NCBI GenBank assembly: GCA_947631785.1
Contig: CANRMR010000001.1
Location: forward strand, 9,022 to 73,021
Reading direction: 5' to 3'
DNA from: an uncultured Clostridia bacterium
GTDB taxonomy: Bacteria; Bacillota; Clostridia; TANB77; CAG-508
Length of the DNA stretch: 64,000 nt
The number at the start of each line of letters is the position of its first letter. Positions within the stretch are counted from its first letter, which is position 1. Below the pieces are notes generated by a model that was given only the letters and a program-made list of their open reading frames with translations, did no database searches and was not told the origin of the DNA. Positions 52,105 through 64,000 of the stretch are shown piece by piece. Made by a program: the position numbers and the translations under genes.

Positions 52105-55100
52105 ATGAGTAAAAAATTATTAAACAAAATGCTAGCAGTAATACTAGTAATCATGCTAACAGGGGCAAATTTAATCCTAATTCGGAACATCTGTATACGC
52201 AGAATATGAAGAAAACAATGAACTTGAAAACCAACAAACAAGCGTAGAAAAGACAGGTGTTACTTTTGATGCATATTTTGAGGATAATAAGCATCAAAAG
52301 CAAGTAAATATAAGTGAAGGTATAAAAGCATTTTTCAAAATAAATGTTAAATCTGGATATCTAAGAAATGCCAAAATTAATATGGAAAATGCAAACTTTA
52401 AAATGAATATAGGCCAAACAAGTAATGAAGTAATAGAAAAAGTAGATATAGAAAACAACCAAATATATTTAAATCAAATAAATAAAGGTCGCGAATATAC
52501 AATAGAAATGCCACTAAAAATAAATAATGAAAGCGAATTTGATTTAAATAATTTTGTAAAAGAAAATTCTATAAAACTACAAGGTGAATTTATTACAGAA
52601 GAAGCAAAAACAGTAAAAGTAGATAAAGAAATAAAATTAAAAATAGGATGGACAAACGAAGCAAACTTAAACTTGTCACAAGAAATTAGCAATGTTATAG
52701 AAACCGAAACAGAAAAAGTTGTACAAGTAAAAATAAAAACAAACGTAGAAAATAATGCTTTACCAGTAAAAGAAACAAAATTAGATGTAAAAGTTCCAGA
52801 AATAAATAACACATTACCAGAAAAAGTAATAGTATATGCAAACACAAGCAAAGCAACTAATGGAGATGACGGACAAGCATTTTCAGACCAAAACTATAAT
52901 TATGACAAAGAAAATGGAACATTACAAATAACAGTAAATAACAACCAAGACGAAAATAACAAAATAAAATGGGAGAAAAATGCAGAAGATGAGTACATAG
53001 TAACATATGTATACAAAATGCAAAACACAGCAGATATTGCAGAAAATGCAGTAGCAACTGAAAATGAAGTGACAACTGAAAATGAAGTAGAAAATCAAAA
53101 AACAATAAACCAAAAAATAAATGCAGAAGTAAAACTATATTCATCAGAAGAAAAAACAATAACAGCAACTAGTGAAGAACAATTAGATATAACACAAAAA
53201 GGACAAACAATAATAACAAACGTAGCAACAAGTAACACAAAAGAAATAAACAAAGGATATATGTATACAAACACAACATATCCAACAACATACAATGTAA
53301 AATGGGAAGAATCAGTTGGATATACAGACATAGTAGATGAAATAATAGTAGAACAAGGATCAGAAAAATTTTTAAATGAAGCTTTAGAAGAAACAGATTC
53401 ACAAACAAATACACAATATATATCAACAAAAATAAGCAAAGAAAACTTTAATAAAATATTAGGAGAAGAAGGAAACATAAAAATATACAATGCAGAAGGA
53501 ACACAAATTGCAACAATAGACAAAAACATGCAAGCAGATGAAGAAGGAAACTACATAGTAAACTATGATCAAGACATAAACTATATAAAAATACAAACAA
53601 GTAAGCCACAAAAAGAAGGAAAACTAGAAATTGAACATACAAAACAAATAAAAGCAAAAACAAACTATACAATAGATCAAATAAAAAACTTCAAAACAAT
53701 GCAAGCACAAGTTGTAATGCTAAAATACGATAACGATCAATTAGCATACAAACATACATATAAAACAAATATAGCTATGCAAGAACCATCAACACAAATA
53801 GAAAGCTACATAAACAAAACAAATTTATCAACAGTAAATACAAACAATGATGTACAAATAAACGTAATTTTAAAAAATAATAAAGTAGAATACGATTTAT
53901 ACAAAAATCCAGTAGTAGAAATAGAACTACCAAGTTACGTAGAAGATATGCAAATAAACCAAGTAGAACTTTTAAATGATGAAGAAATGAAAATAAAAGA
54001 TAGAAATGTAGAAACTATGCAAAATGGAAACAAACTATTAAAAATAGAATTAGAAGGAGAACAAACAAAATATAATACAGACGAATTAACAGAAGGAGCA
54101 ATAATTGCAATAAATTTAAATCTAACATTAAATAAATTTACACCAAATAAACAAGACACTATAAAAGTATATGTAAGCAACCAAAAAGCAACAGCATACG
54201 AAAATGAAGAAATAGGAAAAGCCTATAAAGAAATAGCAATAAATTATGTAGCACCAACAGGAATGGTAACAGTAAATAAAATAATAAATGGAACAAGCGA
54301 AGCAATGTCACTTAGTGGAAAACAAGAAGATGTAGAAATAAAAGCAGGAGAAACTGCAAAAACAATGACAGTAGATATGACAGTAATAAACAACACAAAT
54401 AGCAATACAGAAAATGTAAGCATACTAGGAAAAGTGCCAACAGCAAACAACACACAAATAGGAACAAATCAAAGCCTAGGAAGCACATTTACAGCAAACA
54501 TGGCAAGTCAAATAATTGCAAAAACACAAATAAACAGCGAAAACATGAAAGTATACTATACAAAAAATGAAAATGCAACAAAAGATGTAAACGACAATAA
54601 CAACGGATGGACAGAAGATGCATCAATAATAAACGAAGCAAAAGCATATTTAATAGTACTAAATGGATATAAATTCGAAAAAGGAGCAACAATAGAATTT
54701 TCATATGATGTAACGGTACCAGGAGACTTAAAACATGGAGAAAAAACATATGAAACATATGCAGTATACTACAACCTAGAGGGAATAAACACACAAGAAG
54801 TAGCAGAAGCAACAAAAACAGGAATAAAAACACCAGAAGGAGCAGACTTAAAAGTAACACTATCTTCAAATGTAGAAGGACAAAAAGTGCAAGAAGGTCA
54901 AATTATAAAATACACAGTAACAGTAGAAAATGTTGGAAATGTAAAAGCAGAAAATATAGCTATTAAATCATATATTCCAAATGAAGCTGTATATGTAGAG
55001 AAAAATTCAACTGGAGTATATAAAGAAGATAATAGCAAATTATTTGTATCAAACAATATATTTTCGTTAAATGTAAATGAAAAAAAATCTTATGAATTTG

Positions 55101-63100: not shown

Positions 63101-64000
63101 GCTTATGATGAAGTAGGGTCAAGACAAAAAGCAATAGATTTCTTAGCAAACTACAAATATGACAAAGCAAGTTTAATAAATAGTAGTGAAAAAGCAACAG
63201 GAGAAGAAGGCGAATATTCAATTGATGGAAACCGTTATGTTAATGATACAACAACATATAGTGTAAATGGAAATGAAATGACAGTAAAAGAAGCATTAAC
63301 AATTGACGCATATACAGCACCATTAGAGCTAGAAGTAGAATATGCAAAAACGCAAAGCCAAGGAAGTACATCGAAAAAACCACAAGATAGAACATATGAA
63401 GTAAAAAATGTAGACTTTGGAATAGCTCAAAGACCTGAAAGTAAAGTAAGAATAGAAAAAACAATAAAAGATGTAACAATTACATTACAAGATGGAACAG
63501 TTCTAATAGACCATGCAACACCAGAAAATATTGGAGATCAGCTTGTAGAATATGCTAGAAAATTAGGTGATAATTTACACTTTGAAGTAGATGATGAAAT
63601 ATTAAATGGTTCAACACTTCAAGTAACATATGACATAAAAGTAACAAACGAAGGAGATCCAAGTACATTAACATACTTCTATGCTGCGGATAATAAACCA
63701 ATAGCTATAGGATATTATGGAGAAGAATATAATGAAATGTTATATGGAACTGAACTTGATGGAACAAAAATTGAACGTCATGTAGGTGGACAATATAAAG
63801 TAACTGATTATGATACTAGAGAAGAAGTACCAGTTACAACGAAAGCAGATAACGTAATAGATTATGTACAATCAAATTATACATTTGATACAGAACTTAC
63901 AGAGGATAATAAATATTGGGAATCAGTACAAGTAGATGAAGATACTGGTAAAATAATTGATAATGAAACGGAAGAAACATTAGTAGGATTTGATAATGCA
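57104..64000 (+). CDS. Second giant surface adhesin (more than 2298 aa; the 3' end lies beyond the window). It has a signal/TM segment, an N-terminal thioester-domain-like region and multiple Cna-B/SpaA-type domains
   Basis: Uninterrupted frame-2 ORF from GTG 57104 (RBS aggaagtga) to the window end. It is absent from the ORF track only because there is no stop in the window. Cys58 in EIFCVDHGD and Gln148 in DKQEAIW match the TED Cys and the TQxA(I/V)W Gln motif. Repeated xGYxKLxGDITVxF modules are Cna-B-like. Confidence 0.7.
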   Translation, partial: MSKKILITFTLIILMLFAGSVIVRASLSNDLTGTVTGKELMDINHSGAWNFGTIEIFCVDHGDRINSWPMGTIGSTETLQGDSENPSDYTIGGPIRNACKYSWSRMVHVENLEEGAYEYYDANGNPQKQSYQGIAYILSSSVSGRDKQEAIWCTGLNAYNTGRYPTEYRGSSVNKNNEYAGNASDPNVLAGLASLEDPENEYTIHTDNAMAGVLSTLTKLDQLSTTTTLDIINLPVDEAKSKIMDADKFNQTTFNDNNKERALKYLFDLKDRSYGIGNDWKQLEALLVGNTEGAFSALRGENNEEILEELLSDENKLKYKFKGDGVVRNLNGFENSILGGYSSAETYIKIFTAYFQNIIDANDNQDLIQKAQKQINEIFPEIEKQLKTITSEQMNKINGKRNDIISEIEEKTSDNYLNQTHLNQDEKKVIQDKANEIIDALKNINMDDPFEGAINTLNKYSSTIKSQYNDLNTTKDKIPTQVIDSNGNKVNNTKYDIADFLTKMEKAIYETVDEIISDINKAKGNPSLQQQYLNNYSNLLKERLKANGVSEDTLDQFGNITSLYKSKLEEYYNTKGSATENYEKVLEDAQEFTNYIKQLQAKGNLENTTKVDASKAKTAVNNDESEYKYLVGPFTVDYFFYPYEIQYKDLKNDAGQTMSYFSQISEIKVQGINGSILDSQLVDKDGNPFGQGQDYKYPKPGDKFYLKVKYNPAEYAFKILVSIDYANVCEGQIAELKDTANVLRYIHKTSRQNEGGTGYTYIYKLEEVTNETQESQLLIAVNTKDDIYRVKRNVEHIKPDVTFKEDDKPEWGLELLKVDEDGNGLNGAKFDVTVRKDGQDIPVWIDELSSSTNNGRTKTISGLDETGRMSVVIHESQAPEGYDKLYGDITVTFDVDENGISSDSVSGTGDGYEGNKIISYTKDDTNKIIQIIIENKNTTDDDDHHDDDGGGKQGYGYDINFEKVDKDDGKAYLANAEFKVVFYQDNNSDGKVNKGDKKLETTTVKTDKNGKGSITNLKHTGNIVVEITETEAPSGYERLTGSMTMNYKAEKNGKNYKIVGDIEIEISDKDNASTSGNTVTIKNTKPDSDKDKKEETLPYSLNLYKVDSKTNVRLEGAEFKVTFYEDTNDSKTLDEKDELLGTKNDIIIDDSGMFKIDELSYEGTIFAKIEETKAPDGYEKINGDIVIRYKTTKESVSSGNWTEVVDGKEITHTFSRNEIKIADLNIINNINNSKITIDNNRVLCIEVPNTKIHPYSIELFKVDEDTQKLLDGAEFTVEFLDNSGNRLEDGLKDIIAQNGIGTIKDLDYEGNVTIKITEIKTPTGYVKLENPIEVKYNAQKVNNGWKLTSSNDTNINIENGQNARIGITINNKPTIGYIWTTMKLGGYVFEDEKSITKGQEKNDQFDGGEEFPGVEVTLYSTDSDTPLAKTISDDNGYYLFNNLDPMKKYYVTFTYNGYLYENITPLQGDWAVSSKASEDASERDSLNSQFATISAYPNNYIGKNGTNTAFLLNKIEEMEKQLRNGIIEYMSSHNGEFPSDKYSIFTNDNEKRFMMDTEITSSTNPVVTTNFAEDDHFIINDKDNVYHKVTEEYDAETGEWKEVKGEIRYGDTTVKVEEGEVYEGILDNDYLYIYDRQLQVNMGIEARPELDLEIKRKALTKATVTVNGKTEEYNYSNTASVEKILETRTADMQDEVDANIDLLYEIMITNKSDTIGAVTQLVDFYNADMYEIKDIEIRKGTDIAKGSISTDSVDQTINGFGTKLINIPDDEKLRLGNNESLYVYVTLSLTPNGKDMLYNLKERDSIQSDNIVEINQYKTYYDKETPDSPGILDRDSIPGNLTKQFNQLNEDIRDKTNWEDDTAIAKFSNVYQKPRTFTGNVYEVLKDNAASVQDISNGKAIDGINVKLIELVKDGIVTREKTKYETNTEEGGKYKFEGYIPGDYVVRFTYGDKTYTVDGNSKVYSGEEYQSVKANPNTRNTENGNKVYWYTNTDARYSDAYDEVGSRQKAIDFLANYKYDKASLINSSEKATGEEGEYSIDGNRYVNDTTTYSVNGNEMTVKEALTIDAYTAPLELEVEYAKTQSQGSTSKKPQDRTYEVKNVDFGIAQRPESKVRIEKTIKDVTITLQDGTVLIDHATPENIGDQLVEYARKLGDNLHFEVDDEILNGSTLQVTYDIKVTNEGDPSTLTYFYAADNKPIAIGYYGEEYNEMLYGTELDGTKIERHVGGQYKVTDYDTREEVPVTTKADNVIDYVQSNYTFDTELTEDNKYWESVQVDEDTGKIIDNETEETLVGFDNA

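Follow-up and report, generated by a model that had tools for sequence, protein, structure and literature searches.

Among the modules of bacterial adhesins, thioester domains (TEDs) are, to our knowledge, alone in attaching covalently to molecules of a host or partner; they also serve as protein-engineering tools. The TIE proteins that carry them are laid out as a signal peptide, an N-terminal head, an isopeptide-type stalk and a C-terminal signal (PMC4450167). Their thioester bond joins the Cys of a [YFL]CΦζ motif, placed on a β-strand, to the Gln of a weak ΦQζΦΦ motif on a later, C-terminal β-strand; a separate helical motif, TQxxΦW, which is common in TEDs and not universal, supplies a Gln and a Trp that pack against the thioester and are dispensable for the bond, and TEDs share just 12–23% identity with each other (PMC4450167, PMC6194298). 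Here we describe a locus of two adjacent giant genes, gene 1 and gene 2, in a 64,000-nucleotide (nt) stretch of DNA from an uncultured Clostridia bacterium (GenBank assembly GCA_947631785.1, contig CANRMR010000001.1, positions 9,022 to 73,021; hereafter the window), and we compare it with TIE proteins and other surface proteins of Gram-positive bacteria. Coordinates are those of the window, and all features of the locus lie on the plus strand.

What can be read securely is that the gene pair forms a conserved operon and that both its products are giant stalk proteins, secreted and tethered to the envelope, which makes them fibrillar adhesins in the broad sense. More tentatively, and with a little less than even confidence, we propose from sequence comparison that the head of the gene 2 protein is a very divergent TED in which Cys58 would be bonded to Gln776 across an expanded helical module. 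The two genes are separated by a gap of 21 nt that contains a ribosome-binding site and no terminator, and a gene 1-like/gene 2-like pair is also present on two unrelated metagenome contigs, L093 (17-nt gap) and L092 (19-nt gap). The genes upstream of the head gene on these contigs have C-termini 65% (L093) and 55% (L092) identical to that of gene 1, ending in LSLNTGG and LSISTGV respectively, followed by a hydrophobic segment and a YIINKK tail. Both the two-gene unit and the LS[IL][NS]TG motif are conserved across three organisms. Pfam and NCBIfam matches bear out the view of an earlier note on this DNA that the pair consists of DUF11, SdrD-B and CnaB/SpaA-type repeats, and the consensus promoter reported there is present upstream of gene 1 as a sigma-70-like site, TTGAAA-17 nt-TATAAT (52006..52034), the best in the region with 11 of 12 matches. 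It is its position that suggests a promoter function, because the region, which is AT-rich, has no excess of promoter-like sites over shuffles (41, with 43 expected). Transcription from this site would presumably cover both genes, and each protein would be exported by way of its Sec signal peptide and carried outward from the cell by a long stalk, made up of Ig-like domains.

Gene 2 opens at GTG 57104, behind a ribosome-binding site (GGAAG, 57090..57094), and encodes a signal peptide over 57104..57181; GTG 57095 is an alternative start, and the public gene call, P0001, begins three codons before GTG 57104. The gene runs for 2,299 codons before leaving the window, in agreement with the earlier estimate of more than 2298 residues. 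Its 3' end, where the earlier note had proposed to look for LPXTG and a neighbouring sortase, was recovered through an exhaustive HMMER search that identified P0001 as the complete gene 2 protein, encoded on a single contig, L001 (ENA ERZ27249118). This contig matches window positions 55559..64000 at 99.99% identity and supplies the last 164 residues, in which TDPTG is found in place of LPXTG. From GTG 57104 the full-length protein has 2,463 residues, far above most described TIE proteins.

The head of gene 2 occupies residues 27–810 (~780 residues), a stretch that matches no family. Its N-lobe (57182..57703) contains Cys58 (57275..57277) in FCVD, and Gln148 (57545..57547) and Trp152 (57557..57559) in KQEAIW; Cys58 in EIFCVDHGD and Gln148 in DKQEAIW had been pointed out before, and both are present. 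A helical insertion of ~420 residues follows (57704..58963), for which the models predict helices only and no family matches above threshold. The head is completed by a β-rich C-lobe (58964..59533) with conserved YxVGP..DY and YKYPxPGxxFY motifs and an invariant Gln776 (59429..59431) in SQLLI. Coiled-coil-type Pfam matches in the helical insertion were rejected as compositional, and so was a weak NCBIfam M3 oligoendopeptidase match (26 bits against a cut-off of 562).

Of the TED motifs, FCVD fits [YFL]CΦζ, and KQEAIW fits TQxxΦW except at Thr. The two are spaced 90 residues apart, and the Cys-to-Trp segment of ~95 residues is consistent with the 102-position Pfam TED model, in which position 1 corresponds to a residue just ahead of the TIE_pLS20 Cys. 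Around its Cys gene 2 has EIFCVDHGDR, and a bona fide TED from a plasmid has IAFCVDHVKE. The pattern Q-x-A-[IV]-W occurs once in the six frames of the window, at the Gln148 site, and shuffling of residues 27–200 places the probability of the motif pair at the observed spacing at 3e-4, or 1.5e-5 for the strict form Q-x-A-[IVL]-W. As a negative control for motif co-occurrence we used 79 chance ATQxAIW sites, found by scanning viral contigs with a degenerate DNA pattern; not one belongs to a TED or has a Cys motif 50–130 residues upstream (0/79). A text search of the literature for TQxAIW strings returned no papers. The earlier note had cast Gln148 as the thioester partner of Cys58, an assignment that we do not retain, the Gln of TQxxΦW being the helical and dispensable one (PMC4450167, PMC6194298); the candidate partner is Gln776.

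Relatives of the head were sought by HMMER over 1.84 billion representative proteins, and three only were found: P0002, encoded on L093 (41% identical), the 113-residue fragment P0003, and P0004, encoded on L092 (29% identical). Word-indexed homology searches with gene 2 residues 1–849, P0004 and an N-lobe profile gave no further relatives, and neither did a GTDB genome scan and two JGI metagenome scans using the gene 2 head, the head alignment and the gene 1 N-terminus. A tblastn search of plasmids with the head lobes and the gene 1 N-terminus produced one match, an 82-residue open reading frame (ORF) on a Bacillus megaplasmid, which was rejected on inspection as due to chance. In the head alignment (three to four sequences, otherwise 27–46% identical) Cys58 is invariant in all four sequences, the relatives reading YCVD, YCVD and FCME, and Gln148, Ala150 and Trp152 are invariant in the three that cover the helix motif (KQEAIW, KQEALW and IQRAIW). 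Gln776 is likewise invariant in 3/3 (SQLLI, SQILI and AQIMV), and residues 600–830 contain no other ΦQζΦΦ-like site, the motif itself being weak. The helical middle varies in length, from ~80 residues in P0004 through ~420 in gene 2 to ~500 in the L093 homologue.

Downstream of the head, gene 2 encodes four SpaA/CnaB-type stalk domains (59534..61237; PF17802, 121.3 bits over four stretches) at residues 811–939, 954–1092, 1096–1252 and 1252–1378. When the four repeats are aligned, a Lys (xKVD), a Glu (ExxAPxGY) and an Asn (ΦxΦxNxK) are kept in every one. In CnaB/SpaA domains residues at these positions make intramolecular isopeptide bonds and catalyse their formation, and such bonds are predicted for the gene 2 stalk. 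The acidic/His linker DDDDHHDDDGGG lies between SpaA domains 1 and 2; the earlier note had recognised it and had placed it at 59920-59950, and we find it at 59921..59956. In the L093 homologue a poly-Asp/His linker (DDDHGDDDDDDDDDDDD; PPDDDHGDDDDDDDDDDDDYG) stands at the same place between SpaA repeats 1 and 2, and the acidic/His spacer is thus a conserved feature, which possibly binds metal or acts as a flexible hinge. The distal stalk (61250..64000), which runs off the window, has SdrD B-like domains at 61250..61531 and ~62765..62980 (PF17210, 47.2 bits over two stretches, cut-off 29.7) with DUF11-like β modules between them; no DUF11 profile matches gene 2.

Gene 1 is built differently at its N-terminus, where ~880 residues belong to no known family (no Pfam match over residues 1–800) and have no relatives in plasmids by tblastn or in the JGI metagenome scans. 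DUF11-type repeats follow at 54848..55612 (PF01345, 58.9–78 bits over two stretches; TIGR01451, 39.2 bits), then an SdrD B-like domain at 56093..56377 (PF17210, 52.8–55.2 bits, cut-off 29.7) and a terminal β module; the DUF11 and SdrD_B assignments are profile matches above the gathering threshold. The gene 1 SdrD B-like domain has its best PDB match in Staphylococcus aureus SdrD (E=4e-9), and domains of this type are found in both genes, a likeness to the stalks of the MSCRAMM proteins SdrD and SdrC of that species, although the locus differs from them in having no match to the ligand-binding N2-N3 A-region, no Ser-Asp repeat and no LPXTG. Gene 1 shares its DUF11 repeats with giant surface proteins of the DUF11 / B_ant_repeat (TIGR01451) type, which occur in Bacillota and archaea, and its D-x-D-S-x-P-x-N...EDD module ends are, we assume, typical of such stalk domains; by contrast, the 880-residue N-terminus matches nothing, and LS[IL][NS]TG is no described sorting motif.

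The C-terminal signal of gene 1 (56969..57079) reads LSINTGG-IATYITITLVMLVILGVGAYII-NKKVLRKI, with LSINTG at 56969..56986, a hydrophobic segment of 22 residues at 56990..57055 and the basic tail NKKVLRKI. This agrees with the earlier description of SINTGG before a hydrophobic helix and a KKVLRKI tail without LPXTG; of the two modes of anchoring then considered, a transmembrane helix or a variant sortase motif, the variant motif gains from the retention of LS[IL][NS]TG in two orthologues. Gene 2, completed from L001, ends in NITDPTGENKSY-TWAIITVVAAGILAGGIVLI-KKYVIDPRK, with a hydrophobic segment of 20 residues and the motif TDPTG. The closest described signals are those of Clostridioides difficile SrtB, which uses the non-LPXTG motifs (S/P)PXTG and NVQTG (PMC4155245). 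As in SrtB substrates, an xxxTG pentapeptide (SINTG or TDPTG) stands immediately ahead of the hydrophobic segment, with the basic tail after it, and SINTG resembles the SrtB motif NVQTG in form (PMC4155245); the two pentapeptides are, however, not identical to validated SrtB motifs, and no sortase gene is seen in the window. The arrangement would represent a sortase signal of non-canonical form or else simply an anchor in the membrane, and by one or the other the proteins are presumably held in the envelope. A reading of the locus as a pilus was dropped for want of a pilin-type sortase in the window.

Set against the TIE proteins SfbI and Cpa of Streptococcus pyogenes, CpTIE of Clostridium perfringens, BaTIE of Bacillus anthracis and TIE_pLS20 of B. 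subtilis, the gene 2 protein has in common a signal peptide and, in its head, the Cys of a [YFL]CΦζ motif, a QxxΦW motif ~90 residues on, a helical region between β regions and, further along, a conserved Gln whose context is ΦQζΦΦ-like. It also shares a SpaA/CnaB stalk and, at the C-terminus, a motif that leads into a hydrophobic segment and a basic tail. It differs in showing no detectable profile similarity, in the replacement of Thr by Lys or Ile, in a helical subdomain of 80–500 residues and in the absence of LPXTG. The β lobe of ~190 residues before the candidate Gln recalls the β-sandwich insert of class II TEDs, although homology is not demonstrable. The likeness to TEDs is one of motifs and architecture and does not extend to profiles. 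If the head were a TED, its N-lobe would carry the thioester Cys58 of [YFL]CΦζ and the TQxxΦW-type helix KQEAIW, the helical subdomain would have grown from the usual three helices to ~420 residues, and the β-rich lobe would bring the invariant Gln776 (SQLLI) back to Cys58. The putative internal thioester between the two could then be attacked by a nucleophile, such as a lysine, on a target surface, which would result in covalent adhesion.

Several results weigh against this proposal. The profile searches by which the earlier note had suggested that it be judged recovered the Cna-B-type (SpaA) and DUF11 domains and were negative for a TED: neither gene 2 nor its relatives match Pfam TED (PF08341), TED_2 (PF20610) or the NCBIfam thioester/TQXA models even at E<=10, whereas the experimentally supported class II TED of pLS20 (PMC8092201), used as a control, matches both Pfam models (TED_2, 28.8 bits; TED, 23.6 bits). 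A profile of class II TEDs, made from eight sequences encoded on plasmids, recovers SaTIE-TED (6FX6) at E=1e-4 and gives the head family ~0 bits by hmmsearch. Alignment of the head family with the same eight TEDs by hhalign reached a probability of 2.3–2.6% (P ~0.02), which is not significant, the best local alignment being the Cys strand. Searches of the PDB with the head, as single sequence and as family profile, found no TED. AlphaFold2 models of gene 2 residues 27–815 and of P0004, made with the four-sequence alignment, had pLDDT values of 41.8 and 41.9 and were unusable, and Foldseek with the P0004 model (pLDDT ~42) gave nothing at E<=0.001, BaTIE and EfmTIE86 appearing at ranks 48 and 50 (E ~0.3). 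Within the head itself, the Thr of the helical motif is replaced by Lys or Ile, and Cys58 and Gln776 are 718 residues apart with the 420-residue insertion between them, for which there is no precedent among described TEDs. Beyond the head, the LPXTG pentapeptide precedes the hydrophobic segment in neither gene, no ORF of >=150 residues in the window has the sortase signature TLxTC (L001 ends 72 nt past the gene 2 stop), and gene 1 is frameshifted in this assembly. The negative searches are nevertheless weak evidence, because TEDs are so dissimilar to each other (12–23% identity) and because the TED of TIE_pLS20 barely passes Pfam; the same TED, when run as a control, found no solved TED by phmmer.

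The main rival to a TED in gene 2 would make the two proteins giant fibrillar adhesins of the ordinary kind, or stalk proteins associated with an S-layer. The head would then belong to a new family restricted to one lineage and would bind non-covalently or act as a spacer, the Cys and QxAIW being structural, or TED-like by coincidence, with no thioester formed. In its favour, all profile, profile-profile and structure tests for a TED are negative or uninformative; the invariance of single residues is weak evidence in a family of four members, and an insertion and a Cys-Gln separation of this size are unlike any described TED. It sits less easily with two motifs at canonical spacing, for which the chance is 3e-4 or lower, with the invariance of the rare residues Cys and Trp at 27% overall identity, with a further conserved Gln in a ΦQζΦΦ-like context, and with an architecture typical of TIE proteins. 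We consider such an orphan, non-covalent head a real possibility, while doubting it on the whole. Much less probable, and in our judgement very unlikely, is a surface-displayed cysteine-dependent enzyme, of a peptidase, transglutaminase or amidase-like kind, with Cys58 as its nucleophile. The invariance of Cys58 and a His at +3 (CVDH) in three of the four sequences are in its favour, but P0004 has Tyr in place of the +3 His, neither lobe contains another His that is invariant, and no peptidase or transglutaminase family matches at E<=10; the lack of any invariant His in the head alignment argues against a Cys-His enzyme or hydrolase. The divergent TED that we favour could be taken further, to the founding of a third structural class in which a helical module of 80–500 residues separates the Cys from a Gln supplied by a separate β lobe, in a 2,463-residue protein with a DUF11 partner and an undescribed anchor signal of LS[IL][NS]TG / xDPTG type; in this extended form we think the proposal rather unlikely.

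The integrity of gene 1 bears on whether both proteins are made. A ribosome-binding site (AGGAGG, 52092..52097) precedes ATG 52105, and the n- and h-regions of a signal peptide (MSKKLLNKMLAVILVIMLTGANLILI; the whole feature 52092..52182) are in frame 1, which reads on through MSKKLLNKMLAVILVIMLTGANLILIRNICIRRI to a stop at 52207-52209 (a TGA ending at 52209). The body of the gene opens in a second frame right after TAA 52178, as FGTSVYAEYEENN, and includes FGTSVYA|EYEENN, the end of the signal peptide with an AxA-like cleavage site. A frameshift, due to an insertion or deletion (indel) of 1 nt, therefore falls at 52178..52185, between signal peptide and mature part. The body (52181..57082) comprises 1,633 codons and a stop; the span 52105-57082 is 4,978 nt long, which is no multiple of 3, so that gene 1 is not the single ORF of ~1659 residues previously supposed. 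From its first in-frame start, ATG 52382, the long ORF encodes 1,566 residues, for which an exact look-up gave no record.

The frameshift is probably an assembly error rather than biology, because the SMC gene and another gene of the window are also split, and because the indel is not in a repeat tract. Alternatively, the locus might be decaying or phase-variable, with gene 1 a true pseudogene, or a gene switched ON and OFF by a frameshift after the signal peptide, and gene 2 the only one made. It is a fact that the frameshift at ~52180 is real in the sequence, and that frameshifts also break the homologues of gene 2 found on L092 and L093, but the related contigs are short, L001 is of low coverage (cov 3.2 in the contig name), the SMC gene and a SpoIIE-like gene of the same window are frameshift-split too, the gene 1 indel lies outside any homopolymer or repeat tract, and the ORF stays intact for 1,633 codons beyond it; we regard decay or phase variation as improbable. 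The breaks in the gene 2 homologues lie at 1907-1941 on L092, where P0004 runs into a 231-residue ORF that continues an SdrD_B module, and at 2004-2062 on L093, where P0002 runs into a 1,897-residue ORF; all three loci have one broken gene of the pair.

Should the gene 2 head be a TED, the family would be broader than annotation suggests, with members that current profiles fail to detect; a domain-sized helical insertion would be tolerated between its Cys and Gln halves, which is unprecedented, and a candidate factor for covalent attachment would be known from an unculturable lineage of Clostridia. Should it not be one, there would still be two giant adhesins whose pairing is conserved, an orphan domain as the head of one of them, and a C-terminal anchoring motif out of the ordinary, which would appeal chiefly to those who study the surface proteins of Gram-positive bacteria.

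The locus lies in a chromosomal window that contains rpoB and rpoC (25788-33061), with a G+C content of ~27% and coding sequence almost wholly on the plus strand. RpoB is 77–78% identical to that of uncultured Clostridia metagenome-assembled genomes and 61–70% to that of named Clostridia, which makes the host a member of an undescribed lineage of Clostridia (Bacillota). To judge by gene 2, its species is not among the GTDB representative genomes. Genes of the FtsW/RodA family, Dus and an HD-domain protein lie 3' of rpoB and rpoC, and a tRNA-Lys (CTT) at 34331-34406, also 3' of rpoC, is the sole Rfam or ARAGORN match in the window. The SMC gene, directly upstream of the adhesin locus, is in two pieces: an ORF at 47164-47517, whose 117 residues represent the Walker A N-terminus (GPNGSGKSN), and one at 47558-50722, whose 1,054 residues include the hinge as well as the C-terminal head. 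The simplest explanation for such a frameshift, in a gene that is essential, is an assembly indel. A long membrane-protein gene (37446-39917) is similarly spread over four overlapping ORFs (37446-37727, 37837-38406, 38267-39460 and 39348-39917); its C-terminus, which by eye we take to be PP2C/SpoIIE-like (ISDGMGS...), completes a gene whose splitting is a further sign of either indel errors in the assembly or gene decay. Just past the SMC stop codon, between SMC and the adhesin locus, stands a perfect G+C-rich hairpin, GGGGCACGG-TAAA-CCGTGCCCC (50742-50763), which has a terminator score on the minus strand and, being palindromic, might work in either direction. Two small overlapping ORFs of 114 and 137 residues (50788-51542, minus strand) lie in the interval from SMC to the adhesin promoter; they point away from the operon and have no Pfam match. 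Finally, a 2-kb block at 10001-12000, overlapping a 633-residue ORF at 10902-12803, has a G+C content of just 15.4%.

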